Positions 3,252 to 30,074 of a DNA stretch of 64,000 nt are shown piece by piece. The position numbers were made by a program, and so were the translations under genes. The stretch comes from Methanocellales archaeon (GTDB lineage Archaea; Halobacteriota; JAWCLZ01): positions 27,880 to 91,879 of the forward strand of contig JAWCMA010000001.1 of the NCBI GenBank assembly GCA_038850285.1, read 5' to 3'. The first letter of the stretch is position 1; each line of letters starts with the position of its first letter. The notes under the pieces are model-generated. The model worked only from the letters and a program-made list of their open reading frames with translations, ran no database searches and was not told the origin of the DNA.

Positions 3252-3806
3252 ATGTCGATTGATCGCCAAGCTTTAAAGGAACTTGAACCCCGTGGAATTA
3301 CCCTTGTGCTAACCAAGGCAGAGAATTATCAAAGGGCAGTGCTTGAACTCATTGAATATCTTGTGAATGAGAGAAGAGAATTTGGGGTGTATGTAACTTT
3401 AAACAAGCCTTTCTTTTCCATGAAGAAACTGCTTGAACCTAGAATTGATTTGAGAAAGGTGATCTTCATCGATGGATTTACTAAACTCGCTGGGGGAAAA
3501 CCTGAGAAAATCGAAGGCGTGCTTTATATAACGAGTGTTGAGGATTTAACTGGAATGAGTTTTGCACTGGATCAAGCGGTTAAATCGATTCCAATTAGAG
3601 AGAAGTTTGTGTTCTTCGATTCTCTCTCAACTTTATTGCTCTATAATAAAACTGGCAGCGTGGCGAAGTTCATTCACTTTTTAACTGGAAAAATCAGGCT
3701 CTGGGATATTGATGGGATTTTTATCTCTCTGGGAGAGGAAGATGACCAGGTTATATCCAAACTCTCGATGTTCTGCGATAAAATTCTCCATCTAGATAGA
3801 GATTAA
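3252..3806 (+). CDS. RecA-superfamily (KaiC/RadB-like) fold protein with a degenerate Walker A
   Basis: 184 aa. A Walker-B-like FVFFDSLSTLL and a KaiC-like LYITSVED segment are present, but the P-loop position reads RGITLVLTKAENYQ with no GKT/S. Confidence 0.4.
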   Translation: MSIDRQALKELEPRGITLVLTKAENYQRAVLELIEYLVNERREFGVYVTLNKPFFSMKKLLEPRIDLRKVIFIDGFTKLAGGKPEKIEGVLYITSVEDLTGMSFALDQAVKSIPIREKFVFFDSLSTLLLYNKTGSVAKFIHFLTGKIRLWDIDGIFISLGEEDDQVISKLSMFCDKILHLDRD

Positions 3807-4181
3807 AGGCAGAATCTTCTGCTGAAGGTAATTTAAATACATTCTCTCGCGCTCAATTTCAACCCCTAAGTTCTCAATTTCACTTGAATAGGAGTTGATC
3901 TGCTGAGTATACTCTTCAGGCGCGTTCAATTTCAACTCCAGTAAAATTTCAATCGCTTTTTTAAGCTTTTCTCTTTTTTCTCCTAGGTCTCGAATTCTTT
4001 TTAAATATTGCTCTATGTTGCTTTGATGTTCATTCTCAAGTTTTTTAATTTTTATTAGCTGTTTCTCACTCTCGAGGTTTGGGATATCTATTTTAGGTGC
4101 CTCTTTTGCTTCGCTGATCTTTCCACCGCTAGCTTTCTCTCTCAGGAGAGTGATGAATCGCCTTTCCACTTCTCCTTCCAT
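3792..4181 (-). CDS. Small coiled-coil protein, paralog 1 of a three-member family in this window
   Basis: 129 aa. The shared motif KKLENEHQS..I..Y.KRI..L..(E)KLK.AIEIL..LKLN.P.EY...N.Y..EI..L..EI..E+.YL.YLQ.K.LP matches the ORFs at 29793..30074 and 25163..25891. Confidence 0.6.
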   Translation of the reverse strand: MEGEVERRFITLLREKASGGKISEAKEAPKIDIPNLESEKQLIKIKKLENEHQSNIEQYLKRIRDLGEKREKLKKAIEILLELKLNAPEEYTQQINSYSSEIENLGVEIERERMYLNYLQQKILPLISI

Positions 4182-4227
4182 GTGTAATTAATTTTTATGA
4201 ACATCTATTAATGCTCGGTGTTCACGT

Positions 4228-4743
4228 TTAATCCGAACCAGCTACGCTTTTAAGTCGTTTTACACCGCCAACTTCCTCTATAACTTTTACCACTTCCTCA
4301 GGCACAAGGTGCTCCCAAGGTTCATCATTTAACATTCGCCTTCTAATTTCTTTGCCCTCGTATTTATCGCGTTCAAAGAGGGGGGGATTGCGTACCTCTA
4401 TTCCCCACTCTTGGAATAGCCTTACAACTAGTGGATTATTGGAATAGATGCATTTGAATGGTGGAACTAAAGAGCGTACGTGTGAAACATAGATGGAATT
4501 CTTGCGCACATCTGGGATAGGAATTACATAGTAGGGTTTTTTCAATTCCTTAAGCGCTCTGGTGACCATTACCACTCTCTCGCCAGCTGTGAAGGGATCG
4601 CTGACTTCATGGCTCTTTTGAGCACTGCCAATTCCAATTATCAGTTCATCGAGCGCAGCATCGCTAGCGATTCGCTGTATAACTGCGTGGTGACCTAAGT
4701 GATATGGCTGAAATCGGCCTAGATAGAGAGCTCGAGTTACCAT
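4228..4743 (-). CDS. nadM: Nicotinamide-nucleotide adenylyltransferase (archaeal NMNAT)
   Basis: 171 aa with an HxGH nucleotidyltransferase motif (GRFQPYHLGH) and archaeal NadM-like length and sequence. Confidence 0.85.
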   Translation of the reverse strand: MVTRALYLGRFQPYHLGHHAVIQRIASDAALDELIIGIGSAQKSHEVSDPFTAGERVVMVTRALKELKKPYYVIPIPDVRKNSIYVSHVRSLVPPFKCIYSNNPLVVRLFQEWGIEVRNPPLFERDKYEGKEIRRRMLNDEPWEHLVPEEVVKVIEEVGGVKRLKSVAGSD

Positions 4744-4876
4744 TGTTTTATGAGATCATAGTTTTAATATATAAGCTCGCGGTTTTAAATGATAGTTGAA
4801 ACTAATCATAATTTTCGCATTCAACACTTATTATAATGCTATCTTCAAACCAAGTTAGACATCATCTTAACCATAC

Positions 4877-4936
4877 AAAAATAAAAATAAAAATAAAAAT
4901 AAAAATAAAAATAAAAATAAAAATAAAAATAAAATA
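4877..4936. repeat. (AAAAAT)~10 hexanucleotide microsatellite; it reads (ATTTTT)n on the transcribed minus strand, so it is a probable oligo-T terminator
   Basis: T occurs every 6 nt at 4882, 4888, ... 4930. The run begins immediately after the hdrA-mvhD stop at 4939 and lies upstream of the nadM start at 4743. Confidence 0.9.
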
Positions 4937-4938
4937 GT

Positions 4939-7683
4939 TTATTTCTTTGCGGCTAGCTTTACAACCTCAACCGTGCCATCGGGTTTCTTGGAAATACCAA
5001 GTCCAGCTGGTTTGAGGAGTGCTAGGAATTCTTTCATTGGAACTTGATCTCGATCATATCTAGCCTTTGCCTCCGCCAGTGGCACGATCTTTAGCTTGCC
5101 ATCGGAGATCTCAAGGGCAAGTCCCATTTTCTCCAACGATTCAACAATGCCTTTAGCTGGGAAGAATTTTTCAACAGGTGGAGGCACTTCTTTGGGTACA
5201 AGTCCAAGTCTCTTCTCCAAATATGGCCTCAATTTTTCATTCTCAGCTTTAATCCTCTCCACGCCGAGTTCCTTTATAACTCTATCCAGTTCCTTAATTG
5301 TATTAGCATAGACAGTGCTCATTGCAGCTGAGATCCACCGCCTCTGCATCCTCTCAGGGGTTAAGCCCTGCTTCACCAATTCTTCTTTAATCTTATCGAA
5401 CCTAGGCCCTGAGATCTTATTTCCTGATACATAGTGGCAGGTGCCAATTTCACATCCACCCATGAAGAAAGCTCCAGCTCCTCGCCTGAAGGCTTCATAG
5501 ATGAAGTCTCGGTCCACTCTTCCTGAGCACATTACTCTTATTACCCTTGCTGAAGTGGGCTGCTGAATTCGACTCACCCCTGCTAAGTCAGCTGCGCCAT
5601 AGGTACACCAATTGCAGATTATAGCAACTATAGTCTGCTCTGGATTGCGAGCAGTGGCTTCTCTTATTTGAGCCATGATTTGCGCGTCTGTGAAATGCAT
5701 TTGCTGCATTGCACTGCTAGGGCAATCGGCCACGCAGGTGCCGCAGCCATGGCATTGAGCTGGATTGATCTTCGCAAGCTTCTTCTCCCTACCTGGTACC
5801 TCTATCAGCGATATCGCTTTATATGCACATCTCTCCACGCACATACCGCAGCCTATGCAGAGTTTATCGTCCACAACTGCAACTATGGGATCGATCTTCC
5901 ATTTATCTTGAGACATAACTCTGGTTGCTCTAGATGCAGCGCCGTGTGCCTGCGACACGCTATAGGGAATATCTTTCAAGCCCTGGCAGCAGCCAGCTAA
6001 AAATATACCATCTGTGGCAAAGTCAATTGGCTTGAGTTTGGGGTGTGATTCTATGAAGAACCCGTGCTCGTCGGTTGGTACATTTAAGATCGCGCCGAGT
6101 TCACTTGAATCTGGATTGGGAACGCTTGCCTCTGCTAGAACAACCATTTCAACCTCGAGTTCCACAGGCTGATTTATGAAGGTATCAAATACCTTTATTA
6201 ATAGATTCTTATTTGGAAGTTCGATTATCTCAGAAGGCCTTCCGCGTACGAAGGTTATACCTTGATCGCGTGCTTTAATATAGAAGTCCTCGAAGCCCTT
6301 GAAGATGGTTCGCATATCCATATATACTATATAAATCTCAGCATCGGGCCAGTGATCTTTCCAGAGGTTCGCCAGTTTTAAGGTGAACATGCAGCAGAAG
6401 TTACTACAATACGGCTTGGCTATGCCCTTGGGATCCATTTCCCTGCTGCCAACGCAGGTTATGAATGCCACTTTCTTAGGTTCTTTTCCATCTGAAGCTC
6501 TAACCACGTGCCCCTCAAGCGGTCCAGAAGCACAAATCAATCGCTCGAGCTCAAGCGAGGTAATGACATTATCATACCTACCATAGCCATATTCTTTTTT
6601 CTGAGTGGCATCCCACATCGAATAGCCAGTGGCAACCACGATTGTGCCAACCTCGAGCTCAATGATTTCATCCTGCATGGTGAAGTCAATTGCCATGCGG
6701 TCTCCGCATGCTTCCACGCATTTGAAGCACTTGATGCAGTGCTTCAAGTCAATGGTATAGGTATTTGGAACAGCCTGCGGTAGAGGTATATATATTGCTT
6801 TTCTCGGGCCAAGGTTTACATCATATTCATTTGGCACTTCCACTGGGCAAGCTTTTGCACAATCGCCACATCCAGTGCATTTTTCCTTCCTCACATATTT
6901 GGCTTTTTTAAGAACTTCTACTTTGAAGTTACCTATGAAGCCGCTGACTTTTTTAACCTCAGAATAAGCCAGCAATTCAATGTTAGGGTGCCGCCCCACT
7001 TCAACCATTTTAGGTCCTTCTATGCAGATGGAGCAATCTAGGGTTGGGAAGGTTTTATCCAACTGAGCCATTCTGCCGCCAATTGATGGTTCCTTCTCAA
7101 CTAGGTATACTTTAAAGCCGTGGTCAGCGATATCAAGCGCTGCGTGTATACCTGCGACCCCTCCGCCTATTACCAGTGCTTTCTTGGTGATTGGCACGTA
7201 GAATGGCTCGAGTGGCTGGAGATATCTTGCCTTTGCAACTGCCATTCTAACGTAATCCTTCGCTTTCTCAGTTGCCTCCTCTTTATTAGCATAGTGAATC
7301 CAAGAGCAGAATTCTCTGACATTTGCCATTTCAAATAGAAATGGATTCAATCCTGCATCTTGACAGGTTTTTCTAAATGTTGGCTCATGCATCCTAGGGG
7401 AGCAAGCTGCTACTACAACGCGATTCAATTTATGCTCCTTAATTGCTTTCCTTATTTCAGCCTGCCCGACATCTGCACAAGTATATTTATTGGTTTGAAC
7501 CCAAACTACATCTGGTAGGGTTCTTGCATAAGCAGCAACTGCTTCCACATCGACTGTGCCAGCGATATTTGATCCGCAGTAGCAGGGGAATACGCCTATT
7601 CTAGGCTCAGTGATCTCTATGCCACCAGGTCCAATGCCAGCTACTTTTTCCTTTTCTTTAGCTTCAGCTTTAACCTCAGTCAC
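4939..7683 (-). CDS. hdrA: HdrA-like flavoprotein fused to an MvhD-like domain, with an extra C-terminal region of about 150 aa
   Basis: 914 aa. It contains the HdrA N-terminal 4-Cys domain (FPCYCGSNIAG..C..C), an FAD Rossmann fold (VIGGGVAGIHAA), an inserted ferredoxin (CTGCGDCAKACP..CIKCFKCVEACGD), a C-terminal 2×[4Fe-4S] ferredoxin (CIGCGMCVERC..CHGCGTCVADCP) and an MvhD-like segment (IVAIICNWCTYGAADLAGVS...VMCSGRVD...GGCEIGTCHY), followed by about 150 aa that I cannot assign. It overlaps the upstream polyferredoxin gene by 4 nt. Confidence 0.85.
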   Translation of the reverse strand: MTEVKAEAKEKEKVAGIGPGGIEITEPRIGVFPCYCGSNIAGTVDVEAVAAYARTLPDVVWVQTNKYTCADVGQAEIRKAIKEHKLNRVVVAACSPRMHEPTFRKTCQDAGLNPFLFEMANVREFCSWIHYANKEEATEKAKDYVRMAVAKARYLQPLEPFYVPITKKALVIGGGVAGIHAALDIADHGFKVYLVEKEPSIGGRMAQLDKTFPTLDCSICIEGPKMVEVGRHPNIELLAYSEVKKVSGFIGNFKVEVLKKAKYVRKEKCTGCGDCAKACPVEVPNEYDVNLGPRKAIYIPLPQAVPNTYTIDLKHCIKCFKCVEACGDRMAIDFTMQDEIIELEVGTIVVATGYSMWDATQKKEYGYGRYDNVITSLELERLICASGPLEGHVVRASDGKEPKKVAFITCVGSREMDPKGIAKPYCSNFCCMFTLKLANLWKDHWPDAEIYIVYMDMRTIFKGFEDFYIKARDQGITFVRGRPSEIIELPNKNLLIKVFDTFINQPVELEVEMVVLAEASVPNPDSSELGAILNVPTDEHGFFIESHPKLKPIDFATDGIFLAGCCQGLKDIPYSVSQAHGAASRATRVMSQDKWKIDPIVAVVDDKLCIGCGMCVERCAYKAISLIEVPGREKKLAKINPAQCHGCGTCVADCPSSAMQQMHFTDAQIMAQIREATARNPEQTIVAIICNWCTYGAADLAGVSRIQQPTSARVIRVMCSGRVDRDFIYEAFRRGAGAFFMGGCEIGTCHYVSGNKISGPRFDKIKEELVKQGLTPERMQRRWISAAMSTVYANTIKELDRVIKELGVERIKAENEKLRPYLEKRLGLVPKEVPPPVEKFFPAKGIVESLEKMGLALEISDGKLKIVPLAEAKARYDRDQVPMKEFLALLKPAGLGISKKPDGTVEVVKLAAKK

Positions 7684-8720
7684 TTACCACCACTACCCCT
7701 TATTTTTAATAATGTGTTAATCGTTCTATTATATCCTTCTGCTTGTAATTCCTTGGCATAAGCCCTAGTGCTAGTTAGATTGCCTAGAGCTCTAAACCAA
7801 GTGCCTGAATGCGCTTTTGTATGTCGAATTCTTTCCCTAGTTATTGTAATAGCGCCATTTGGGCATGCATTCTTACACGCGCCACATAATATGCAGTATT
7901 CACTTCGATAGACTAATGGTGAACCATGGAGTGCCCCGCAGGGACATGCATCTATGCAAACTGTGCAAACTTCAGGACACTTAGCTGTGTCTATGGTTAA
8001 GATGCCCTCGAAAGGAGTGGTAACAGCAAGTACTCCATTTGGACATACACCCTCGCACCAGCCACAGGTAACGCATTTATCTAGATCTACTTTAACCAAC
8101 TTTTCTCTTCGCTTCTCTCTATTGATAGCAATCGCACCCTCTGGGCATTTTTCAAGCGCTTTGAGGGTTTCATCGGTGAATTTATCATAGTTTATGTAAA
8201 CTCTATCCGTGATTTCAACGCCTGGAGCTTCGCATTTTCTGCATAAATTGCAGAGTTCATCGTTGATCTGGACATCTAAAATTTCAATTTCTCTCTCTCC
8301 ATCTTCATACTTCAAAGCTTCAAATTTGCATGTTTCTTGACAGAGAGTGCAAGTTGGATCGCATTTCTCTTGATTTACATATACCTCTCGAATTAACTTT
8401 GGAAAGTCATCCTGCAGCACAGGTGGAGATGGCTTACCGTCAATTCTGAACTCAATCGCGTGATATGGACAGACTTGCGAGCAAACTCCGCAGAAAGTGC
8501 ATTTATTTTCATCGATAACTGCCTTATTCTTCTTAATCAACTTGCCATCTTTGATCTCCGCGCCACTGATATTAATTGCCTCCTCAGGACAGGAGGTTTT
8601 GCATACCTCGCAGCCTTGACATTTAAGTAAATTATGAATTACCTCATGCAAGCGGAAATACATCTTTCGCTTAATTATTTGCTGCTCGTCTTTAACAAGC
8701 CTAATAGGTTTTCCTCTCAT
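7680..8720 (-). CDS. Polyferredoxin (multi-[4Fe-4S], MvhB/FwdF-like)
   Basis: 346 aa with about 7–8 CxxCxxCxxxCP-type motifs (CQGCEVCKTSCP, CTFCGVCSQVCP, CVTCGWCEGVCP, CILCGACKNACP and others). It is translationally coupled to hdrA-mvhD. Confidence 0.8.
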   Translation of the reverse strand: MRGKPIRLVKDEQQIIKRKMYFRLHEVIHNLLKCQGCEVCKTSCPEEAINISGAEIKDGKLIKKNKAVIDENKCTFCGVCSQVCPYHAIEFRIDGKPSPPVLQDDFPKLIREVYVNQEKCDPTCTLCQETCKFEALKYEDGEREIEILDVQINDELCNLCRKCEAPGVEITDRVYINYDKFTDETLKALEKCPEGAIAINREKRREKLVKVDLDKCVTCGWCEGVCPNGVLAVTTPFEGILTIDTAKCPEVCTVCIDACPCGALHGSPLVYRSEYCILCGACKNACPNGAITITRERIRHTKAHSGTWFRALGNLTSTRAYAKELQAEGYNRTINTLLKIRGSGGK

Positions 8721-8888
8721 GCAAACACCAGAATCTATTGATTAGCCATTGATCTTGATATACATCCATATAAATTAATTGATTTTTTTCAAATAGCAAG
8801 CCTTAATTAAACTATGAATAAAATCGATTCAAAAAGAAAATTGTATAAGCGTTGCGGTTAATTGATAAAAACTTGGGAGCGTTTATTG

Positions 8889-9947
8889 ATGACTGAAAAA
8901 AAGATACTCTATGCTGATTTGACTAAGAATAGCTTGAGTGTAAAAGTGGAGAAAATCGAGGCAATAGGCGGAGCTGCATTGGCATCGAGATTATTAAAGC
9001 AAGATTCATTGATATTTGCAACAGGAGTATTCTCAGGAACCCTTATACCTGCGGGAAGCGTTGTAGGTGTTTTCTCTCCAAATGGAGAGCATTACTTCCC
9101 AGGTAATTTTGGCACTCAAATGAGGCTAGCTGGTTTAGATGCCATTGTAATCAGCGGTAGAGCTGAGAGGCCAGTTGCACTTTGGATAGATGATGATGGC
9201 ATTGATATAGAGCGTGCTGATAAACTCTGGGGCCTAGATTGCTATGAAACAGTTGAGAGAATTTTAAAGGATGCAAATGACCCTACAATTGGAGTAGCAG
9301 TGATAGGCCCGGCTGGCGAGGAGCAGGTTAAATTTGCAAGCATTTACTGCGATGACCAGCTTGATATAAGTGGACTTGGCTATGCAATGGGCGCTAAACT
9401 TTTGAAAGCAGTTATTGTGAGGGGATCGAATGATGTTAAAGTAGCGCATGGAGATGATTTGATAAAGGCTATTTCAAAGAAAGAAGTGCCAAGTAAAATC
9501 AGAAAGGATTTAATTGCTAAAAAACTTCCCAAGAATAGCTCTTGCTTGCAGTGTAATATTGCATGTCGAGAGGTATTCAAGGCAAATGGATCGATAACAG
9601 CCATATTCCCAGAGGAAGCTGAAGCATTCAACGGGTACAAGGCTGAAGAAGTGATTGAAGCAATTGCTCTATGCAAGCGACTTGGACTTAATCCAATTTA
9701 CACTGGCGCTCTAGCTAGGGCAGTGAAGGCTGAGAAACTGAGTGAATTCATAAAGAGCCTTGCTGTTAAATCAGAAGCAGAAAAGGCGATAAAGGCAGTT
9801 AACATAAAAATAGAAAAACCATTGCCTGGAAAACTTGATAAATTATTTAATTCTCTAATGATATGCAAGCGCGCACCTTATGATGGAGACGAGCTTGCAA
9901 AGCTATACAAATTTGTGACTGGCGAAACGATGCCAAGGGAAGGGTGA
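8889..9947 (+). CDS. Truncated aldehyde:ferredoxin oxidoreductase-like protein: AOR domain 1 plus a CxxCxxxC motif, with the tungstopterin-binding domains missing (BamB-like position)
   Basis: The likely start is MTEKKILYADL at 8889; the ORF-track start at 8862 is a TTG. Residues 1-200 align with AOR domain 1 (AGLDAIVISGRAERPVALWI, IGPAGEEQVKFASI, GAKLLKAVIVRGS). The motif CLQCNIAC resembles the AOR [4Fe-4S] ligand motif. The protein is only about 350 aa, against about 600 aa for a full AOR. Confidence 0.65.
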   Translation: MTEKKILYADLTKNSLSVKVEKIEAIGGAALASRLLKQDSLIFATGVFSGTLIPAGSVVGVFSPNGEHYFPGNFGTQMRLAGLDAIVISGRAERPVALWIDDDGIDIERADKLWGLDCYETVERILKDANDPTIGVAVIGPAGEEQVKFASIYCDDQLDISGLGYAMGAKLLKAVIVRGSNDVKVAHGDDLIKAISKKEVPSKIRKDLIAKKLPKNSSCLQCNIACREVFKANGSITAIFPEEAEAFNGYKAEEVIEAIALCKRLGLNPIYTGALARAVKAEKLSEFIKSLAVKSEAEKAIKAVNIKIEKPLPGKLDKLFNSLMICKRAPYDGDELAKLYKFVTGETMPREG

Positions 9948-9952
9948 TAAAT

Positions 9953-10411
9953 ATGGGGACTAAATTTTTAGCTGCAGATCCAGCGCTTTGCATTGGTTGC
10001 CACACTTGCGAGCTGGTCTGCTCATATAAAAAAGAAAATGTTTTCAATCCCAAGAAAGCGCGAATTAAAGCAGTTAGCATACCTCCGCTTACAAGTGCTC
10101 AAGCGTGCAGACTTTGCAAACCAGCACCTTGCTTGATAAAATGCCCTAGAAGAGCAATTACTCAAGATGAGAAAACTCTGGTTATAAAAATAAATGAAGA
10201 TAAATGCGATGGCTGTGGTTGGTGCGTTGAAGCTTGTGAATTTGGAGCCATGTCCATGCATCTTGATAGAAAAAAGGCATTTGTCTGCGACCTATGCGAT
10301 GGCAAGCCAGCTTGCTTGGAATTCTGCCCAACTAAAGCAATAGATTTTGTTAGCGAGGAAGAACTAGCACGGAAGGTTCAATCAGCGTTCAGTATAGTAA
10401 AGGGTGTTTAA
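9953..10411 (+). CDS. Four-cluster [4Fe-4S] ferredoxin (BamC-like position)
   Basis: Motifs CIGCHTCELVC, CRLCKPAPCLIKCP, CDGCGWCVEACEF and CDLCDGKPACLEFCP. The start is an ATG at 9953, overlapping the upstream stop. Confidence 0.75.
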   Translation: MGTKFLAADPALCIGCHTCELVCSYKKENVFNPKKARIKAVSIPPLTSAQACRLCKPAPCLIKCPRRAITQDEKTLVIKINEDKCDGCGWCVEACEFGAMSMHLDRKKAFVCDLCDGKPACLEFCPTKAIDFVSEEELARKVQSAFSIVKGV

Positions 10412-10413
10412 CA

Positions 10414-11556
10414 TTGATCTCTAGGGAATTTATTAAAAAGATCTCAGCTATCCCAGGCGGCGAGCAAGCAAAGATGTGCTATAAATGTGCTGAGTGTACT
10501 TCAGTTTGCCCAGTTGCAAAGGAAACCAACTATGAGTTCAAGCCCCATGTCTTGATGGGGATGATCAACTACGGCTTAAAAGACTTAATACTCCCGTATC
10601 TCTGGTACTGCATAACTTGTGGTAAATGTACAGTGCTATGCCCTCAAGGTATTAATATTCAAGAAGTGGTTAGAAGCGCTAGGACTCAAGCAGTCCAGGT
10701 ACCATATGCCCATAAGGGTATCTTTCACACCATGCATAGAATAATGGCTAGAGGAAAGGCTCCTGATAGAACAAAATGGTTTGAAGAAGCTGGGATTGAT
10801 TTAAATAAAAAAGGAGACAAGCTTTTTTTCGTGAGCTGCATTCCACTGTATGAGCTGTTCTTCACGGATTTGAACTTCGATGCAAAGGAAATGGTGAGAA
10901 GCAGTGTGAAGATCTTGGAAAAATTGAATATAAACTATCAAATATTTGCTGATGAACGCTGCTGCGGTCACGATGTTTTTTGGGCTGGTGACTTTGAAAC
11001 ATTCAAGGAATTTGCAAATGTAAATGCAAAGCTATTCAAGGAACGTGGAGTGAAGGAGATAATTACATTTTGCCCAGAGTGCTATCGAACTTTTCTTTTA
11101 GATTATCCAAGGGTAATAAAGGGCTTTGACATAAAAGTTAAACATATCACTGAAGTAATAGCAGAAGGCATAAATAGCGGTAAAATCGAAATCGCTAGGT
11201 CTAACGAAATACTCACTTATCAAGATCCCTGCCGCCTCGGCAGGCATTGTGGTATTTACGATTCTCCAAGGATTATTATGGAGAAGCTTGGTAAATTTGT
11301 TGAGATGAAGAATACCAAGGAAAAAGCAGACTGCTGTGGGATAAGTGCTTGGCTTAGCTGCGAGCCTGAGACCAAGATATATAGGGAGCAGCGGTTGAGG
11401 GAAGCGAGGGAAACAGGTGCGCAAACATTGGTTACTGCTTGCCCCCACTGCTTGATTCATTTCTCTTGTTCAATCTGCGAGGACCAAAAGATACCAGTGC
11501 AGCATAACATCAAAGTTAAAGATATAGTTACACTTGTAGGGAGGCAGATGAAATGA
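10414..11556 (+). CDS. HdrD-like Fe-S protein: two [4Fe-4S] motifs plus two CCG domains (BamD-like position)
   Basis: 380 aa. The N-terminus has CAECTSVCP and CITCGKCTVLCP. The CCG signatures are ERCCGHDVFW...FCPECY and DPCRLGRHCG...DCCGISAW...CPHC. The TTG start is uncertain. Confidence 0.75.
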   Translation: MISREFIKKISAIPGGEQAKMCYKCAECTSVCPVAKETNYEFKPHVLMGMINYGLKDLILPYLWYCITCGKCTVLCPQGINIQEVVRSARTQAVQVPYAHKGIFHTMHRIMARGKAPDRTKWFEEAGIDLNKKGDKLFFVSCIPLYELFFTDLNFDAKEMVRSSVKILEKLNINYQIFADERCCGHDVFWAGDFETFKEFANVNAKLFKERGVKEIITFCPECYRTFLLDYPRVIKGFDIKVKHITEVIAEGINSGKIEIARSNEILTYQDPCRLGRHCGIYDSPRIIMEKLGKFVEMKNTKEKADCCGISAWLSCEPETKIYREQRLREARETGAQTLVTACPHCLIHFSCSICEDQKIPVQHNIKVKDIVTLVGRQMK

Positions 11557-14516
11557 AGGGATCGGTATTAGTTATAGGTGGAGGCATAGCTGGAATGGTT
11601 GCCTCTTTAGACCTAGCTGACATTGGCTATAAAGTTTATTTAGTCGAGAAACTCCCGAGCATAGGCGGGAGGATGGCTCAGCTTGATAAAACCATGCCCA
11701 CGCTAGATTGCTCAATGTGCATTGAAGCACCTAGAATGGTGGAGGTAGCGAGGCATCCAAATATAGAGTTGCTGACCTATGCTGAGGTGAAGCGAGTTAA
11801 AGGTAAACTTGGGGATTTCAAAGTCGAGGTAATTAAGAAGTCTCGATATGTTGATAAAACCAAATGCACTGGATGTGGCGACTGCGCTCAAGCCTGTCCA
11901 GTGGAAGTGCCAAATGAATACGATGCTAATACTAAATCGCGAAAGGCAATATATATTCCATTTCCCCAAGCTGTTCCAAATACATATACCATTGATATGA
12001 AGCACTGCATCAAATGCTTCAAATGCGTTGAAGCATGTGGAGATAGAATGGCAATTGATTTTACAATGCAGGATGAGATAGTGGAGTTAAACGTTGGTGC
12101 TATAATCGTAGCCACTGGATTTGATATGTACGATCCCTCGGTGCTGCGCAATTATGGCTATGGGGTCTTGGAAAATGTATTAACAGGACTGGAATATGAG
12201 CGCCTATTAAATGCTGCAGGTCCAACTGAGGGGGTTATCTTAAGGCAAGATGGCAAGCATCCTAAGCATATTGCATTCATTCAATGCGTTGGAAGTAGGG
12301 ATAGCAAGCACAAGAAATACTGCTCGCGCTTCTGCTGCGTTTACGCTGTGAAGGAAGCAATTTTAACTAAGGAACACGATCCTGAGGCTAAATGCACAAT
12401 ATTTTACATGGACATGAGAGCTCATGGAAAAGGACAGGAAGAGTTCTACAGGCGTGCAAAAGAGGAATTTGGCATTGAGTTTATCAGGAGCAAGCCCGCG
12501 TATATAGAGCAAATTGGGGATAAACTGCGAATTACTTACGAGGACACTAGTTCAAGTGAAGTTAGAACAATGGAAGTTGACATGGTTGTGTTGGCTAACG
12601 CAATAGTACCAAGCGTACCAACCTCGCTTAACATCGAAGTAGATGCAGATGGCTTTATCTCAGAGAAACTCGGAGATCCCTCGACCACGAATATCCCAGG
12701 GATATATGCAGCTGGAGTTTCACAAGCGCCAAGAGATATATCTGATTCAGTTGCAATGGGCAGCGCAGCAGCTGGTAAGGTATCTGCGGATTTGAGAGAA
12801 GCCAGAGGTACTGAGGTAGTGAAAAAAATACTACCGCCTGAGAGAGATGTAACTCGTGAACCACTTAGGATTGGCGTTTTCCTATGTCACTGCGGTATAA
12901 ACATCGCTGGCGTCGTTGATATGAAAGCACTTGAGGAATACTCTAGAACTCTACCTAATGTTGTATTTGTCCAACGTAATCTCTACACCTGCTCTGAAGA
13001 GGGCAATCGCCAGATTAGGGATGCCATTAAAGAATATAATTTGAATCGCGTTGTAGTAGCAGCTTGCACTCCGCGAACTCATGAAGCACTCTTTAGGGAA
13101 ACATGCATGCAAGCTGGATTGAATCCCTATTTACTTGAATTCGCAAGCACTAGAGAAATGTGTTCTTGGGTGCATATGCGCCAGCCTAAGGAGGCAACTG
13201 AGAAGGCTAAGGATATAGTGAGAATGGCAGTCGCTAGAGCAGCTTTGCTTGAGCCTCAGAAGCCAGGTGTAATTCCAGTCACGCCAAAGGTAGTGATAAT
13301 CGGCGGTGGCATAGCTGGCATGCAAGCAGCCTTGGGATGCGCGAGAAATGGTTTTCAAACCTATCTCATTGAGAAAAGCGCTGAACTCGGTGGAATGCTG
13401 GCTAAGCTTCGCTCTATGGTTCCCACTTATCTTGATCCAAGGGAAATTGTGAGGGAGAAAATTGCAGCAGTGAGGCAAAATCCATTGATAAAAGTTTATA
13501 CCAATACCGAGGTCAAGAATATCTCTGGCTTCATAGGAAACTTCATAGTGGAACTCTCAAATGGCGAAAAAATTGAAGCTGGGGCTATAGTGGTTGCCAC
13601 AGGTGGAAAGGAGTGGAAGCCTGATGTATATGACTATGGCAAAAATCCAAATGTTATGACCCAGCTTGAGTTTGAAGAAGCTCTTTTAAAGGGAGAAATA
13701 AAGCCAGGTGAGAGAATTGTTATGATACAATGCGTGGGATCTAGAGATGAAAAAAGGCCTTATTGCTCGAGGATTTGCTGCGGCGTTGCAGTTAAAAATG
13801 CTCTAGAGCTCAAAAAGCGATATCCTGAGAACCCAGTTTATATATTATATAATGATATGCGAACCCACGCTAAGGGAACGGAGGAACTATATCTAGAAGC
13901 TCGGGAGAAGGGAGTGGAATTTATTAGATTTGAACTTGAGAATAGACCAACTGTTAGAGGCAATAAGGTAACGGTCTTTGATAGTTTCCTGCAAACCGAG
14001 TTTGATATACCAGCGGATAAGATAGTGCTATCCAGCGCTATAGTGCCTGATGAAAATGCACCTCAGCTTGCGAAGATGCTTAAAGTGCCTCTTGATGTTA
14101 ATGGCTTCTTCCTTGAGGCTCACCTCAAACTCAGACCTGTTGACTTCGCCACTGATGGAATATTCGTAGCTGGTGTAGCACAGAGTCCAAAGGAGTATTA
14201 TGATTCAATTTCACAGGCAGATGCAGTGGTGGCTAGAGTGGCTAGATTACTAGCTAAGCCTGAGTTTGAAACAGAAGCTATTACTTCTATAGCTATGGAG
14301 GAACTCTGCATTGGCTGTGCTCGCTGCGTTGCATGCTGCCCATATACAGCTATTACCATGGTGATGAAGAACGGGAGATATGTTTCAAGTGTTAATCAAG
14401 CCCTCTGCAAAGGCTGCGGTACTTGCGTGGCTGAATGTCCAACTGGTGCTATGAAGGCAAGGCACTTCACCACTGAGCAGATTACAAAAATGATAGATGC
14501 AGCATTGGAGGAGTGA
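11553..14516 (+). CDS. Tandem (double-FAD-domain) HdrA-like flavoprotein (BamE-like position)
   Basis: 987 aa. Order: FAD domain 1 (VIGGGIAGMVAS) with an inserted ferredoxin, then an internal HdrA N-terminal-type 4-Cys domain (VFLCHCGINIAG), then FAD domain 2 (IIGGGIAGMQAA), then a C-terminal 2×[4Fe-4S] (CIGCARCVACCP..CKGCGTCVAECP). Its start is an ATGA overlap with the upstream gene. Confidence 0.85.
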   Translation: MKGSVLVIGGGIAGMVASLDLADIGYKVYLVEKLPSIGGRMAQLDKTMPTLDCSMCIEAPRMVEVARHPNIELLTYAEVKRVKGKLGDFKVEVIKKSRYVDKTKCTGCGDCAQACPVEVPNEYDANTKSRKAIYIPFPQAVPNTYTIDMKHCIKCFKCVEACGDRMAIDFTMQDEIVELNVGAIIVATGFDMYDPSVLRNYGYGVLENVLTGLEYERLLNAAGPTEGVILRQDGKHPKHIAFIQCVGSRDSKHKKYCSRFCCVYAVKEAILTKEHDPEAKCTIFYMDMRAHGKGQEEFYRRAKEEFGIEFIRSKPAYIEQIGDKLRITYEDTSSSEVRTMEVDMVVLANAIVPSVPTSLNIEVDADGFISEKLGDPSTTNIPGIYAAGVSQAPRDISDSVAMGSAAAGKVSADLREARGTEVVKKILPPERDVTREPLRIGVFLCHCGINIAGVVDMKALEEYSRTLPNVVFVQRNLYTCSEEGNRQIRDAIKEYNLNRVVVAACTPRTHEALFRETCMQAGLNPYLLEFASTREMCSWVHMRQPKEATEKAKDIVRMAVARAALLEPQKPGVIPVTPKVVIIGGGIAGMQAALGCARNGFQTYLIEKSAELGGMLAKLRSMVPTYLDPREIVREKIAAVRQNPLIKVYTNTEVKNISGFIGNFIVELSNGEKIEAGAIVVATGGKEWKPDVYDYGKNPNVMTQLEFEEALLKGEIKPGERIVMIQCVGSRDEKRPYCSRICCGVAVKNALELKKRYPENPVYILYNDMRTHAKGTEELYLEAREKGVEFIRFELENRPTVRGNKVTVFDSFLQTEFDIPADKIVLSSAIVPDENAPQLAKMLKVPLDVNGFFLEAHLKLRPVDFATDGIFVAGVAQSPKEYYDSISQADAVVARVARLLAKPEFETEAITSIAMEELCIGCARCVACCPYTAITMVMKNGRYVSSVNQALCKGCGTCVAECPTGAMKARHFTTEQITKMIDAALEE

Positions 14517-14519
14517 GAA

Positions 14520-23250: not shown

Positions 23251-23303
23251 AACATAACCTCCATTTTTTAAATATGAGCTAGAGCTATATAGATATTTTT
23301 AAT

Positions 23304-24246: not shown

Positions 24247-24603
24247 ATGGAAGAAGAAAAAATCCAGAAACTCGCAAGGATGCTTGAGAAAGGCGGGAAG
24301 ATGCTAGCAGCTCACTGCGCTTGCAATGCACCGCTATTCAAATATCACAATGAAATAATCTGCGCTGCTTGTGGAAGGCAGTATGAAAAAAAAGGTGATG
24401 AATATATATTAAAAACCCCTGCAGTGGAAGCAACGGCACCGGCAGTGAAGGGAGACATGAGTTCAGTGGAGCTTGCAATAATTGAGAAACTCAATCAAAT
24501 TGCAAGTGATTTGAAGAATGAACGCGATCCAAGGAGAATTCAAGAGCAATTTCAGTGCATTGAACTCGGTGTTAAAATACTGCAGAGCTTGAGAAAAACC
24601 TAA
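24247..24603 (+). CDS. Zn-ribbon protein, UPF0148-like
   Basis: 118 aa with CACNAPLF...CAACG. Its stop abuts the tRNA-Ser 5' end. Confidence 0.45.
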   Translation: MEEEKIQKLARMLEKGGKMLAAHCACNAPLFKYHNEIICAACGRQYEKKGDEYILKTPAVEATAPAVKGDMSSVELAIIEKLNQIASDLKNERDPRRIQEQFQCIELGVKILQSLRKT

Positions 24604-24688
24604 GTCGAGGTATCCAAGCCTGGTATGGAGCAGGTTTGCTAAACCTGTGTCCCTATGGGACTCGGGGGTTCAAATCCCCCCCTCGGCG
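24604..24688 (+). tRNA. tRNA-Ser (GCU)
   Basis: GTCGAGGTATCCAAGCCTGGTATGGAGCAGGTTTGCTAAACCTGTGTCCCTATGGGACTCGGGGGTTCAAATCCCCCCTCGGCG with anticodon loop TTGCTAA and a long Ser-type variable arm. Confidence 0.9.
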
Positions 24689-24700
24689 TAATATAAAATA

Positions 24701-24742: not shown

Positions 24743-24757
24743 TTGAGATGATCTCTG

Positions 24758-24949: not shown

Positions 24950-24956
24950 AAATACT

Positions 24957-25154
24957 TCAACGTTGCAGCAAACCTGTTTCCACGTAAAACTCCTTCAATT
25001 CTTTTAGTTTCTTATATGCATCGTTCCAGTCTTCCTCTAAACTTAGGCGAGCTGCAATTTCTTTTATCTTCAGCAACTCCTCCTCAAGCAATTTAAAGGC
25101 TTCATCCAAGTTCATTTGCCTCATCTCAGCAATATTGCAATATCTCGCATCCAA
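24957..25154 (-). CDS. Hypothetical small protein (65 aa, helical and charged)
   Basis: An ORF 8 nt downstream of the membrane coiled-coil gene. Confidence 0.35.
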   Translation of the reverse strand: MDARYCNIAEMRQMNLDEAFKLLEEELLKIKEIAARLSLEEDWNDAYKKLKELKEFYVETGLLQR

Positions 25155-25162
25155 GTATCATT

Positions 25163-25891
25163 TCAATTCCCGCTTTCAACTGGCTTGATTCTTTTTAAAA
25201 AAGAAAATTCTCTATATCGCCTGAGGGTTGCAATTCCCAAGCACGTGAATATTATGATGTTGATTGCAATTAGCAATCCAACTGTTTTCACAGCACTGCC
25301 ACTTAATGCAAAGCTCAAGAGTAGCATGACTACTATGCTTAAAACCAAGCTGAATGCTGTTCTCTCTATCATATCCAAATGCTCTATATTTGGAAATATG
25401 ATTGCAAGTAATACATACCCTGGGAATAAGAGTAGCACTGGCAATGCAATTATTCTAAAGATGATCTCCTCGAAAGATGTTGCAAAAATCGCGGCATCAA
25501 TAAGTAGAGTTATGATTGCAATAGCAAACAAATCATGGCTATAGTTGAATTCTCTTTTGAAGAAGTTTCTATGCAGGTAATCCAGCAGCATTTTTTCCTG
25601 CCTTACGTGCTCCTGCAAGCTCTTTATTTGCTCTTCATACCCTCGTAGTTTACTGCTGCACTCAGGAGGAATAGATAGATTATTTAATTTGAGTACTTCA
25701 AGTGCATCTCGTAGCCTTGATTCCTCTATCCTTAGTCTCTGGATATCTGCAATGGCTTTTTTAATATTATGAACATGCTCTTTTTCCAGCAGCTTTAACT
25801 TGGGAATTATTTTATCAATAATCCATCCCCATTTTTTATTCAATTTGCCAATATAAATTTTTTTGCTATATAGACTGCTTAGCAATGGCAT
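25163..25891 (-). CDS. Membrane protein: an N-terminal coiled-coil domain (family paralog 3) fused to a C-terminal 4-TM domain
   Basis: The N-terminus LKLLEKEHVHNIKKAIADIQRL...LEVLKLNNLSIPPECSSKLRGYEEQIKSLQEHVRQEKMLLDYL is homologous to the ORFs at 3792..4181 and 29793..30074. The C-terminal half is hydrophobic. Confidence 0.6.
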   Translation of the reverse strand: MPLLSSLYSKKIYIGKLNKKWGWIIDKIIPKLKLLEKEHVHNIKKAIADIQRLRIEESRLRDALEVLKLNNLSIPPECSSKLRGYEEQIKSLQEHVRQEKMLLDYLHRNFFKREFNYSHDLFAIAIITLLIDAAIFATSFEEIIFRIIALPVLLLFPGYVLLAIIFPNIEHLDMIERTAFSLVLSIVVMLLLSFALSGSAVKTVGLLIAINIIIFTCLGIATLRRYREFSFLKRIKPVESGN

Positions 25892-27092
25892 AGGTTATGC
25901 TGGAATCAATAACTTTAACGTCAAACCACTTCCCGAGGGGGAGGTTTTCTTTGATCACAATATTTCTATAGCAATTGTCTCTCGCAATAGTTGTATTTTG
26001 CTTCCCTCTCTCAGTTGTGAGTACCTTCAGCTGCTTGCCTATTATTGACCTATAATATTCTGAGGTTATTTGATGGTGAAGCTGGGTCAAGATTCTAGAC
26101 CGCTGTTTTTTCAATCTCTCTAGCATGTCTGGCATTTCATAAGCTAAAGTATGGGGCCTAGGTGAGAAACGAGTGATGTTAACCTTTACGGGCTTGATTT
26201 CAAGTAGGTTTTTCTTGGTTAATTCAAAGTCCTCCTTACTCTCCCCTGGGAATCCAACTATGTAGTCTGTGGAGAGTAAGAGCTCTGGATAGCGAGCTCT
26301 AAAGGCATGCACAATTTCGCAATAATCTTCAATTCTATAGCCCCTATTCATTAGCTCTAATATTCTATTGGATCCTGATTGAACTGGTAAATGCAGGAAT
26401 TTAAAGACCTTGGGGGATGCAAAAGCATCTAATAACTCCTCGATGATTGGCTTTGCAGTCGCTGGATTCATCATTCCAACTCTGATCATAAAATCCCCTT
26501 TGATTTTAGAGATTTTCTTTATCAAAGCAGCTAGATTTGTGTTTAAATCAATGCCATAGGATGAAGTATCTTGAGCTGTGATTTGAATTTCCCTTGCCCC
26601 TTGTTCAACAAGTATTTTCACCTGTGCTTCAATTGCATCTGGATTATAGCTCCTTAATTTCCCTCTTGCCTTCTTCACTATGCAGTAAGAGCAAGCTCCC
26701 AAGCACCCCTCGCATATTGAGATATAACCTATAGCGCCAGTTATGCCACTCGGTGGAGTTCTATCTTCAGCTGCAATTTTGCTCCCGAGTTTTTCGCAGA
26801 TTTCATGTAAATTGCTGGGAGTAAGGGTTTCCACATTATAGTGCGCGAGAAGCTCAGGCTGGGCAGCTGGCAGGCACCCTGCGACTATCAATTTTTTCGA
26901 TGATAGATTTTTAATTCTCTTGAGCATTTTTCTCTCAGTGAACTTGGTAACCGTGCAGGTATTGATCACAGCTGCATCAGCTTGTTCAAAGCGATCAACT
27001 ATGGTAAATCCAGCTTTTTTTAATAGATTTTCCATCTTCTTAGCATCGCATAGATTAGAAATACATCCATAGTTCTCGATATATACCTTCAT
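25866..27092 (-). CDS. mtaB: tRNA methylthiotransferase (MiaB/MtaB family, radical SAM)
   Basis: The N-terminal MTTase domain has MKVYIENYGC..N..D; the radical SAM motif is CSYCIV; a TRAM-like C-terminus is present. Confidence 0.8.
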   Translation of the reverse strand: MKVYIENYGCISNLCDAKKMENLLKKAGFTIVDRFEQADAAVINTCTVTKFTERKMLKRIKNLSSKKLIVAGCLPAAQPELLAHYNVETLTPSNLHEICEKLGSKIAAEDRTPPSGITGAIGYISICEGCLGACSYCIVKKARGKLRSYNPDAIEAQVKILVEQGAREIQITAQDTSSYGIDLNTNLAALIKKISKIKGDFMIRVGMMNPATAKPIIEELLDAFASPKVFKFLHLPVQSGSNRILELMNRGYRIEDYCEIVHAFRARYPELLLSTDYIVGFPGESKEDFELTKKNLLEIKPVKVNITRFSPRPHTLAYEMPDMLERLKKQRSRILTQLHHQITSEYYRSIIGKQLKVLTTERGKQNTTIARDNCYRNIVIKENLPLGKWFDVKVIDSSITYAIAKQSI

Positions 27093-27140
27093 TTCAATAA
27101 TTTATTAACCCATTCAACATTTTATTTTTATTTTAGTTTT

Positions 27141-27848
27141 TTATTTTTTATGTTCAAGCATCCATTCTATGCTGCGGAGAATTCCATGTAGAGTAAATAT
27201 CTCCTGCTCAGTTAATTCTGCTCTCCCGCAGATCCTGCGGAGCATGAGCATTGTTTTCCTCCGCTTGTGCTTTGGATACTCTACTTTTTCAAGTAGCTGT
27301 TCTATGTGTGAATAAAACTGCTCAAGTGACCTATGAGATGCAAGCTCGATCTCTCCTCCTTCTACCTTGCTCAACTCATAAAGTATAACTCCAGCTGCTT
27401 GTGCTAAGTTCATAACTGGATACACAGGATTAGCTGGGATATTTACCACGATATCGCATTTCTCAATTACTTCATTAATCAACCCAGTGTCTTCCCTTCC
27501 GAAGAGCAGTGCAATCTTGCCTTTTTTCCCCTCAAGTTTTTTTCTCAATTGCTCTGGCGTTAGAACTGGTCTTCTTTTAAATTCGCATTTTCCGGATTTC
27601 ACTGCAGTTGTGGCTATGATCAATGAGACATCCATAATTGCTTCATCAAGGGTATCAACTTTCCTAGCTTTTTCTAATACATCGAAAGCATGAGAAGCCA
27701 TAGCGCGAGCGAAGTCGCCAAGCTGAGGAGGCTTGACTAAAACCAACTCTTCGAATCCAAAGTTCTTCATAACCCTAGCAATAGAGCCTATGTTTCCCTC
27801 GTATTTAGGTTCAACTAAAATAACCCTGAGATTTAACTTGCTCATCAC
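27141..27848 (-). CDS. SpoU/TrmH-family RNA 2'-O-methyltransferase (TrmJ-like)
   Basis: RVILVEPKYEGNIGSIARVMKNFG matches the SPOUT N-terminal motif. Confidence 0.65.
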   Translation of the reverse strand: MMSKLNLRVILVEPKYEGNIGSIARVMKNFGFEELVLVKPPQLGDFARAMASHAFDVLEKARKVDTLDEAIMDVSLIIATTAVKSGKCEFKRRPVLTPEQLRKKLEGKKGKIALLFGREDTGLINEVIEKCDIVVNIPANPVYPVMNLAQAAGVILYELSKVEGGEIELASHRSLEQFYSHIEQLLEKVEYPKHKRRKTMLMLRRICGRAELTEQEIFTLHGILRSIEWMLEHKK

Positions 27849-28273
27849 TCACCTTTAATTTTCTCAATAACCTTTACCTCTGAGATGCGAGTAGTAGGAT
27901 AATTCCCAGTTTTATCTTTCTCAGCTGATTTCACCATATCCCATATAGCTAAGAGAGCAGTAGTAGCTCCAGTGAGTGCCTCCATTTCAACCCCAGTTTT
28001 TCCCAGCGATTTAACCTCAACTTTTACCTCAATACTGCGCTTTGCAATCTTAAAACTCACATCCACGCTGGTGATTTGAAGAGGGTGGCAGAGTGGTATT
28101 AACTCTGGAGTGCGTTTCACAGCCATAATGGCTGCTACTCTAGCAATTGCAAGTACATTTCCCTTCTCAACCTTTCCCTCCTCTATGGCTTTAACTGTAC
28201 TTGGCTTGAGGTAGATCCTCCCGCTGGCAATTGCTTTTCTCTCAACATCGCTTTTCCTGCTTATATCCACCAT
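27845..28273 (-). CDS. moaC: Cyclic pyranopterin monophosphate synthase MoaC
   Basis: GKTGVEMEALTGATTALLAIWDM. The start was chosen at MVDISRKS; the ORF track extends to 28348 and would overlap nnr. Confidence 0.8.
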   Translation of the reverse strand: MVDISRKSDVERKAIASGRIYLKPSTVKAIEEGKVEKGNVLAIARVAAIMAVKRTPELIPLCHPLQITSVDVSFKIAKRSIEVKVEVKSLGKTGVEMEALTGATTALLAIWDMVKSAEKDKTGNYPTTRISEVKVIEKIKGE

Positions 28274-28316
28274 CTTAACTCTGTCCTCCTTAATATGGCT
28301 GAATTTAATCCTCAAG

Positions 28317-29765
28317 TCAAACCCTCTTGGCAAGTGGGATATTTTCAATTACATCTGTTGCGAGAATTCCATAGTTCTTCTGCTCATAAGCAATATCCCC
28401 TGCTCTACCGCAGATGAAAGCACCAACTGAAGCTGCTTCAACTGGCCTGAACTTATGGAAGAGAGCCCCCACTATCCCAGCTAATACATCCCCAGTGCCC
28501 CCAACAGTCATAGCTGCATTTCCAGTGCGATTTACCTTTACAGTTTCTCCATCGGAAATGATATCCATTCTGCCCTTGAGTAGTATCGTTAAGTTATTTT
28601 TACGCGAGAACTGCTGCACTATACCCATTCTCTCTCTCCAGTTTATAGGTAGCTCTATGCCGCTAATCACCTTAAACTCGCCAGAATGGGGAGTGATGAT
28701 TGCACTGGTATTCTTGGGAATTGGTAGGTCAAGTGCGTGGAGGGCATCTGCATCTATTACCACTTTTCTGCATAGAGGAATTATGGCTCTCACAGCTCGC
28801 TTTGTATTCTCGCCTCTTCCAAGTCCCATTCCAATTATAGTTACATCGTGTCTTTCAATTAAGCTGGAGATTGCCTGTACATCTGCTTCAATCAAATAAT
28901 CTGAGGAGAGGGGAGATACAATTAAATTTGGCGAGAAAGAAGCTATGGTATAGGCAACGCTCTTGGGAGCTGCAATTGTTACAACATCCGCGCCTGTTCG
29001 GAGTGCAGCAAGAGCAGTGAGCGCTGGAGCACCAGTGTGCGTCCCCCCTCCTATCACTAGCACTCTGCCATTGTCACCTTTATGGCTTTCTGGATCGCGT
29101 TCAAATCTCAGGTCTCCAGGGCCTACGAATAATTCTGCTTCTAATGGAATTCCTATGTCAGCAACTTCTATTTTCTCTTCCTTTATATTTAGCAAGCCCT
29201 TCTTGAGTTTATGGAAGGTAACTATTAAATCAGCGTCCACGCATTTCTCAGCTTCCCCTGAATCAGGATCTAATCCGCTTGGGATGTCGATCGCTATTAC
29301 AAATCCCTTGCTTTGATTGATCAGATCTATTGCAGTTGAAGCTGGCTCGCGAATTGCACCGCGTATTCCAGTTCCAAATATTCCATCTATAACCACATCT
29401 GCGTTTTTAATCAAAGCTCCAATTTTCTCAAGTTCTCGAGAATCCTCTACTTCAATTATTTCAACCCCGCAGAATTCAAGTACCTCGAAATTTTTCTTTG
29501 CCTCTGGAGTTCTTATTTCATTTCTTCTACCAAGTAGGATTACTTTTACATCATATCCCTTTAAATGCCTAGCTGCAACAAAGCCATCCCCGCCGTTATT
29601 CCCTAGACCTGCGATGATCACAACTCTACCTTGCTTATATCTCCTTCTAACTGCATTTGCCACGCTTGCCCCAGCGTTCTCCATGAGTTGAAGTCTGCTG
29701 ACACCGAGATATTCACAGTTCCTGTCAAGCGCGGCCATTTGCTTTGAGGTAATATAAGCCCTCAT
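28317..29765 (-). CDS. nnr: Bifunctional NAD(P)H-hydrate repair enzyme (YjeF N-terminal epimerase plus C-terminal dehydratase)
   Basis: GLGNNGGDGFVAARHL in the N-domain and GGGTHTGAPALTALAALRTGADVV in the C-domain. Confidence 0.85.
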   Translation of the reverse strand: MRAYITSKQMAALDRNCEYLGVSRLQLMENAGASVANAVRRRYKQGRVVIIAGLGNNGGDGFVAARHLKGYDVKVILLGRRNEIRTPEAKKNFEVLEFCGVEIIEVEDSRELEKIGALIKNADVVIDGIFGTGIRGAIREPASTAIDLINQSKGFVIAIDIPSGLDPDSGEAEKCVDADLIVTFHKLKKGLLNIKEEKIEVADIGIPLEAELFVGPGDLRFERDPESHKGDNGRVLVIGGGTHTGAPALTALAALRTGADVVTIAAPKSVAYTIASFSPNLIVSPLSSDYLIEADVQAISSLIERHDVTIIGMGLGRGENTKRAVRAIIPLCRKVVIDADALHALDLPIPKNTSAIITPHSGEFKVISGIELPINWRERMGIVQQFSRKNNLTILLKGRMDIISDGETVKVNRTGNAAMTVGGTGDVLAGIVGALFHKFRPVEAASVGAFICGRAGDIAYEQKNYGILATDVIENIPLAKRV

Positions 29766-29792
29766 GATTTATATATTATTTTATTTATTTTA

Positions 29793-30074
29793 TCAAGTGA
29801 ATATAGGCAGCACTTTATTCTGAAGATAATCGAGATAAATTTTCTCGTGCTGAATTTCATTCTCAAGCGATTTTATTTCCTCGGGATATTGATTCAATTT
29901 ATGGCTGTACTCAGGGGGTATGTTTAACTTCAATTGCTTTAATATCTCAATTGCAATTTTTAATTTCTCCTCCTCTGTCTTCAATTCCTGTATTCTCTTT
30001 GTATAGATGTCTATCTTCGATTGATGTTCACTCTCAAGTTTTTTAAGTTGAAGCACAAATGATTTTTCATCCAT
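29793..30074 (-). CDS. Small coiled-coil protein, paralog 2
   Basis: 93 aa with LKKLESEHQSKIDIYTKRIQEL...IEILKQLKLNIPPEYSHKLNQYPEEIKSLENEIQHEKIYLDYLQNKVLPI. Confidence 0.6.
   Translation of the reverse strand: MDEKSFVLQLKKLESEHQSKIDIYTKRIQELKTEEEKLKIAIEILKQLKLNIPPEYSHKLNQYPEEIKSLENEIQHEKIYLDYLQNKVLPIFT

Follow-up and report, generated by a model that had tools for sequence, protein, structure and literature searches.

Three related genes in the window

The window analysed here is a 64,000-nucleotide stretch of a Methanocellales archaeon assembly (GCA_038850285.1, contig JAWCMA010000001.1, positions 27,880 to 91,879 of the forward strand) that is archaeal by its gene content, which includes PolD DP2, HdrA-like genes and MvhD. 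On its minus strand lie three genes, designated A, B and C, whose products share a small helical domain. A preliminary description made from the letters of the DNA had singled out the same three genes as paralogous copies of a coiled-coil domain that it could assign to no named domain, with one copy fused to a domain of four transmembrane (TM) segments. We report here on the relatedness of the three copies, the predicted fold of the shared domain, its distribution and genomic context, and the role that these features suggest.

Paralogue A (3792..4181, −) encodes a protein of 129 residues, identical to P0002, in which a short N-terminal helix and a disordered linker precede the hairpin domain (residues 39-129; 3795..4067, −), as delimited by alignment and by the helices of the structural model. 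Paralogue B (29793..30074, −), identical to P0001, consists of the hairpin domain alone (93 residues) and opens a conserved gene cluster that ends in C. Paralogue C (25163..25891, −), with orthologues P0012 to P0017, combines a hairpin domain (residues 25-112; 25556..25819, −), recognized by BLASTP against B and A and predicted to be cytoplasmic, with a membrane anchor of four TM helices. The start codon of C is ambiguous. Initiation at ATG 25891 gives a protein of 242 residues and initiation at TTG 25843 one of 226 residues, with the domain unaffected either way.

BLASTP and alignment agree on an ungapped domain of ~88 residues common to the three proteins. A and B share 53% identity (E = 7e-30), B and C 48% (E = 9e-19) and A and C 30% (E = 3e-10), and the hairpin of C scores 144 bits against a hidden Markov model (HMM). 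A search of the window with an HMM returned no fourth hairpin copy. The preliminary description had proposed shuffled sequences as a control for coiled-coil compositional bias. When shuffles preserving the heptad-class composition were used, the pairwise scores fell 13-28 standard deviations (SD) above them, a similarity that exceeds such bias. The open reading frames, the BLASTP alignments and the shuffle scores together bear out the claim of three minus-strand paralogues.

The ratio of nonsynonymous to synonymous substitution rates (dN/dS, Nei-Gojobori) of the window genes against their orthologues lies between 0.05 and 0.16, at dS values of 0.7-3.2. It is 0.05-0.10 for A when compared with the orthologues in relatives L002, L004 and L012, 0.12 for B and 0.16 for C. 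These values indicate that A, B and C are genuine protein-coding genes under purifying selection. In a DNA-level repeat comparison, the only similarity among the three genes was a weak one between A and B (70-75% over 64-129 nt). The duplications are therefore old within the clade that carries the family, rather than recent or produced by gene conversion.

A helical hairpin with a conserved open end

The AlphaFold2 (AF2) model of B, computed from the family alignment, is a single antiparallel helical hairpin with a mean predicted local distance difference test score (pLDDT) of 95.1 and a predicted TM-score (pTM) of 0.79. Helices 3-47 and 54-92 are connected by a six-residue loop, NIPPEY, which is conserved in the family as N-I-P-x-E-Y, and the model contains no strand. 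The hairpin of A is modelled in the same way, with helices at residues 34-82 and 89-127 and pLDDT >94 (AF2 model m00e64e57fb80). The coiled coil anticipated from the sequence is thus predicted to be an intramolecular one, in which the two helices of a single chain pack in antiparallel fashion.

Column statistics over 20 family members, given here in B numbering, are consistent with this fold. The a/d heptad seam is regular, with 86% hydrophobic residues compared with 21% at the remaining positions. Two invariant polar residues, H17 and E77, occupy seam positions, and E14, E16, K37, E55 and Y83 are also invariant. The most highly conserved set comprises E14, E16, H17, E77, Y80/Y83, L84 and P90, most of which fall towards the open end of the hairpin when the helices are paired by heptad; this antiparallel pairing (i + j ~105) was deduced from the heptad pattern and not from the model coordinates. 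The best conserved part of the family is a patch at that open end, formed by L-E-x-E-H at the start of helix 1 and Y-L-Q-x-[RK]-[VI]-L-P at the end of helix 2. A second hydrophobic stripe, at positions 42, 44, 79, 80, 83 and 89, lies beyond the intramolecular seam. A ferritin-like diiron 'ExxH' motif was considered for E14-x-x-H17 and dropped; by heptad pairing, E77 lies about three core layers from H17.

Distribution and genomic context

A word-indexed search of 5.8 billion proteins yielded 11 relatives. When 1.84 billion cluster representatives were searched exhaustively with a HMMER profile, 12 family clusters emerged together with one spurious TPR protein. All of the named relatives derive from uncultured 'Methanocellales archaeon' metagenome-assembled genomes (MAGs) or from the same contigs labelled 'Halobacteria archaeon'. 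In a scan of 185,579 species genomes the family was present in three species-level MAGs; a scan of metagenome contigs added one short contig, and a scan of viral contigs found no relatives. By the database search and the inspection of neighbouring genes that the preliminary description had recommended, the family is confined to one small Methanocellales-related clade, where it comprises at least eight paralogue types, each with its own conserved context; this restriction was absent from the preliminary description. Individual MAGs hold at least three or four of these types. Clustering of the hairpin regions reproduces the same groups, which we denote A to H.

Type A members are found in the order cytidylyltransferase-like gene, A, DUF7504 gene, PolD DP2. 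In the window, the cytidylyltransferase-like gene (4228..4743, −; Pfam CTP_transf_like), which probably encodes a nicotinamide mononucleotide adenylyltransferase (NMNAT), is directly upstream of A, and its position next to A is kept in L002, L004, L011 and L012. The DUF7504 gene (3252..3806, +; Pfam E = 6.9e-09) runs towards A, and the 3' ends of the two convergent genes share 15 nt; this adjacency is kept in L002, L003, L004 and L012 and is absent in L011. The DUF7504 protein matches the middle of the KaiC ATPase profile, though below the cut-off (E = 0.0045), and inspection of its sequence shows no Walker A motif; it may be a degenerate KaiC/RecA-like protein.

Types B and C belong to a single cluster, of which C is the final family gene. 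The intervening genes (25866..29765, −), all identified by Pfam, encode Nnr (nnr, 28317..29765), MoaC (moaC, 27845..28348), a SpoU methylase (27141..27848) and a MiaB-like radical S-adenosylmethionine (SAM) methylthiotransferase (25866..27092), and the order B, nnr, moaC, spoU, MiaB-like, C is repeated in relative L001. Directly downstream of C is a gene of ~55 codons (24957..25124, −), the product of which (MRQMNLDEAFKLLEEELLKIKE...EDWNDAYKKLKELKEFY) showed no relation to the hairpin family by HMM and no Pfam match. Its counterpart in L001 (11870..12040) is ~80% identical by eye and is separated from C there by a gene for a 50-residue TM protein and by SpoVG.

The remaining types occur in relatives. 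Type D is located 8-30 nt upstream of a polyprenyl synthetase gene in three species. Beside one such pair, in L007 (MAG JZ-2_201705_bins_257), a Cas6 endoribonuclease gene is divergently oriented (2158..3105). Type E follows the fpo/nuo J-K-L-M-N genes and precedes a gene for an AF_0136_N+KaiC-like ATPase of 289-293 residues. Members of this type directly follow the gene for the last antiporter-like subunit in L010 (3371..3790), L014/L015 (6001..6435) and L016 (6001..6417), a position occupied in Methanosarcina by the small lineage-specific fpoO gene. The type E hairpin might be an accessory subunit of Fpo. Type F, represented by P0025, is upstream of sugar-nucleotide modification genes, type G is just downstream of a gene for a KaiC-like ATPase of 247 residues, and type H, represented by P0022, is near a GT2/GtrA gene.

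Membrane anchors and the N-terminal helix

The preliminary description was also correct in assigning a four-TM domain to one copy. The anchor of C (residues 121-221; 25229..25531, −) shows hydropathy peaks at residues 121-139, 147-165, 178-196 and 203-221, and the short C-terminal tail that follows bears six K/R residues. With four TM segments and a K/R-rich tail, the positive-inside rule argues for an N-in/C-in topology, which would place the hairpin of C on the cytoplasmic side. Residues 125-227 match the Pfam family DUF1616 (PF07760) with 48.0 bits against a cut-off of 31.6 (E = 1.2e-12), and PF07760 is likewise recognized in the orthologues P0012 to P0017. The match covers only positions 2-119 of the 307-position profile, corresponding to its N-terminal TM part.

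Membrane fusion has occurred a second time in the family, and independently, in P0025 of type F, where a single C-terminal TM segment forms a tail anchor behind the hairpin. Paralogue A carries an appendage of another sort. Its residues 3-17 (EVERRFITLLREK; 4131..4175, −) are modelled by AF2 as a helix with a pLDDT of ~60 and have a hydrophobic moment of 0.74. They are followed by a flexible linker (residues 18-33; 4083..4130, −) that is disordered in the model (pLDDT <50 for residues 18-32) and differs in both length and sequence between orthologues. A segment resembling the N-terminal helix of A is present in types D, E, G and H, an example being KKKGFIEGLKKEF in P0022. This amphipathic segment resembles MinD-type membrane-targeting helices, a likeness that serves as a lead only. 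Three kinds of appendage are thus found on the same hairpin: the 4-TM DUF1616-type anchor of C, the TM tail anchor of P0025, and the N-terminal amphipathic helix with linker of A and most other types.

Other genes in the window

Adjoining genes at 15304..17375 (−) encode a CDP-alcohol phosphatidyltransferase (15304..16014), a phosphatidylserine decarboxylase (15965..16582) and a membrane protein of the exosortase/archaeosortase family (16557..17375), a trio that resembles the ArtA-PssA-PssD lipid-anchoring module of Haloferax. A dense redox cluster (4939..14939) includes two very large HdrA-like fusion proteins, one of 914 residues (4939..7683, −), whose counterparts in relatives include an FlpD/MvhD part, and one of 987 residues (11553..14516, +). 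The cluster also encodes a poly-ferredoxin, a truncated AFOR-like protein, an HdrBC-like CCG protein and a separate MvhD (14520..14939). At 18636..20047 (+), a SAM decarboxylase gene is followed by one for a branched-chain polyamine synthase (BpsA_C, E = 3e-72); the latter suggests a thermophilic host. A zinc-ribbon protein of the Sjogren autoantigen p27 (UPF0148-like) family with a helical tail is encoded at 24247..24603 (+), with tRNA-Ser(GCT) directly after it (24604..24688, +).

A possible membrane-proximal role

Taking sequence, predicted fold and synteny together, we propose that the hairpins of A, B and C are scaffold or adaptor modules that oligomerise and are attached to the membrane on its inner side, a reading to which we assign a probability of roughly 0.4. 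The hairpins would bind one another by way of the extra hydrophobic stripe and the conserved patch at the open end, giving helical bundles that are homo- or hetero-oligomeric. C would serve as an integral-membrane docking or nucleation subunit, and type F would likewise provide an integral anchor in the relatives that carry it. B would most likely be the soluble partner of C because it has no appendage, belongs to the same conserved cluster and is the window copy most similar to C. The N-terminal amphipathic helix of A would fix this protein to the membrane or to some other partner. The family would then function as a set of membrane-proximal scaffolds or adaptors and not as an enzyme.

The preliminary description had suggested that the soluble copies might interact with, or regulate, a process localised at the membrane. 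This idea is made more plausible by the TM fusion in P0025, by the conservation of the B-to-C cluster and by the predicted N-terminal helix and linker of A. We also count in its favour the membrane-related neighbours of several types, namely the polyprenyl synthetase gene, the end of the fpo/nuo membrane arm and the glycan or GT2/GtrA genes. Several observations weigh against the proposal. A, B and C are flanked by unrelated housekeeping genes (NMNAT, PolD, nnr, moaC and tRNA-modification enzymes), so that no process can be read from their context. Acidic residues abound in the N-terminal helices, which reach a pLDDT of only ~60 in the model and could bind a protein partner rather than lipid. 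The conservation figures come from a very small family (12 clusters at 50% identity) whose sequences are few and closely related. Finally, a hairpin with a buried invariant His and Glu could have another role, such as providing a ligand or metal site within a bundle.

The null reading is that the hairpin proteins are a fast-evolving, lineage-specific set of small soluble coiled coils with no common membrane role, serving for example in generic oligomerisation or in a chaperone-like, prefoldin-style function, and that the fusion in C is an isolated case of domain shuffling. We regard this as somewhat unlikely. Two independent membrane fusions among only about a dozen clusters speak against it, as does the conserved placement of B and C within a single gene cluster. 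Drifting orphan genes, moreover, would not be expected to show such strong purifying selection or to keep a fixed syntenic site for each type. A prefoldin-style role receives no help from family membership, since the prefoldin profile TIGR00293 matches with an E-value of only 0.7 and a six-residue loop stands in place of the prefoldin beta-hairpin.

Three of the approximately eight paralogue types adjoin genes of the KaiC superfamily, and the main rival reading is that the hairpin proteins serve KaiC-like (RecA-superfamily) ATPases as partners or adaptors. The open-end patch would then bind the ATPase and the TM or amphipathic appendages would place it at the membrane, broadly as with ArlX and ArlH. 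Type E lies 100-180 nt upstream of its AF_0136_N+KaiC ATPase gene at five loci in at least three species, type G lies 80-110 nt downstream of its KaiC-like gene, and type A is convergent with the DUF7504 gene, the product of which shows the sub-threshold KaiC match (E = 0.0045). However, the three cases differ from one another in gene order and in orientation, types B, C and D have no KaiC-like neighbour, and the type A member in L011 has no DUF7504 neighbour. An HMM of the neighbouring ATPases found no KaiC-like gene in the window, and three orthologous AF_0136_N-KaiC ATPases from Methanosarcinales and other Halobacteriota (50-60% identity) have no adjoining small hairpin-like gene. Because KaiC-like genes are numerous in archaeal genomes, some adjacency is also expected by chance. 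We consider a dedicated partnership with these ATPases improbable.

The scaffold proposal can itself be extended to a clade-specific adaptor toolkit, in which the shared patch (E14, E16, H17 and Y83) would join the paralogues into a hetero-oligomeric lattice at the inner face of the membrane. C and the tail-anchored type would be the anchors of this lattice, and each paralogue would recruit a different client from among the KaiC-like signalling ATPases, polyprenyl synthetase, the Fpo complex and glycan-synthesis enzymes. This extension is a long shot; if true, it would mean that a thermophilic lineage related to methanogens has a membrane-organising system not described before. Least credible of all is the idea that coiled-coil composition alone produces the similarity or that the small open reading frames are not genes: despite the K/E/L-rich, heptad-patterned sequences and the shortness of the two frames of 93 and 129 residues, it is ruled out by both kinds of shuffle (plain and heptad-class), by how specific the whole-library profile search proved to be and by dN/dS.

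Should the scaffold proposal hold, a small clade would have produced membrane-tethered coiled-coil modules of its own, and the family would offer a compact case of one helical hairpin duplicated with different anchors (4-TM, tail anchor and amphipathic helix). The work defines an unnamed domain family that could enter Pfam and allows the 'hypothetical protein' annotations of these MAGs to be corrected; it has no bearing on a long-standing open question. The host organisms are uncultured, and study of the proteins would therefore rely on heterologous expression.

Comparison with known systems

The hairpin has no significant match in Pfam, NCBIfam, PHROG, PADLOC or the PDB, in line with the preliminary description, which could assign it to no named domain. 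Its best Pfam matches, at 15-20 bits against cut-offs of 25-32, are all to unrelated coiled-coil regions. The best NCBIfam match has an E-value of 0.008 in a comparison where the cut-offs are at least 300 bits, and every E-value from PADLOC and PHROG is 0.001 or worse. In a sequence-profile search of the PDB, the best match was the Habc domain of Vti1a (E = 0.0057, 19.8 bits), followed by IF1 (E = 0.013). We judge the latter two to be short coiled-coil stretches and composition noise.

The beta and alpha subunits of prefoldin (archaeal GimC) are one point of comparison. There is no Pfam prefoldin match, and the TIGR00293 match of 10 bits falls far below its cut-off of 53.9. Prefoldin has beta-hairpins that assemble into a barrel, whereas the AF2 model of B has the NIPPEY loop and no strand at the corresponding place. 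Prefoldins are not known to carry TM fusions. The ESCRT-III, CdvB and PspA-Vipp1 proteins form membrane-binding polymers and contain an alpha1-alpha2 hairpin, but the likeness to the present family is that of a generic hairpin only. ESCRT-III, PspA and Vipp1 have at least five helices, whereas the family has two, lacks alpha3-alpha5 and is ~12% identical to them, and no Snf7 or PspA_IM30 match to the hairpin was found in Pfam at E-values up to 1.

DUF1616 (COG4743) proteins are archaeal membrane proteins with two or four TM segments and an extracellular immunoglobulin (Ig)-like domain that are predicted to be S-layer-associated (Makarova et al. 2015, PMC5898192), and one of them, in Haloferax volcanii, is glycosylated in an AglB-dependent manner (PMC8241124). 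C departs from this full-length architecture, in which the TM part is followed by an extracellular Ig-like region of ~200 residues, in that it ends 15 residues past TM4. The extracellular domain accounts for most of DUF1616, but C is without it and has instead an added N-terminal hairpin, predicted to be cytoplasmic, that lies outside the profile. DUF1616 sequence is entirely absent from A and B.

A parallel in concept is ArlX (FlaX) of the crenarchaeal archaellum, a coiled-coil scaffold that is anchored in the membrane and binds ArlH, a KaiC-like protein. Both systems would have a TM-anchored cytoplasmic coiled coil, and some members of the hairpin family are encoded near KaiC-like ATPase genes. 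In contrast to ArlX, to which no sequence relation was detected, the family is not found near archaellum genes, and KaiC adjacency is absent for the three window copies. Lineage-specific orphan families of coiled coils are common, and the fold of this one is generic: the hairpin domain resembles other helical-hairpin modules in the way it works but belongs to none of them.

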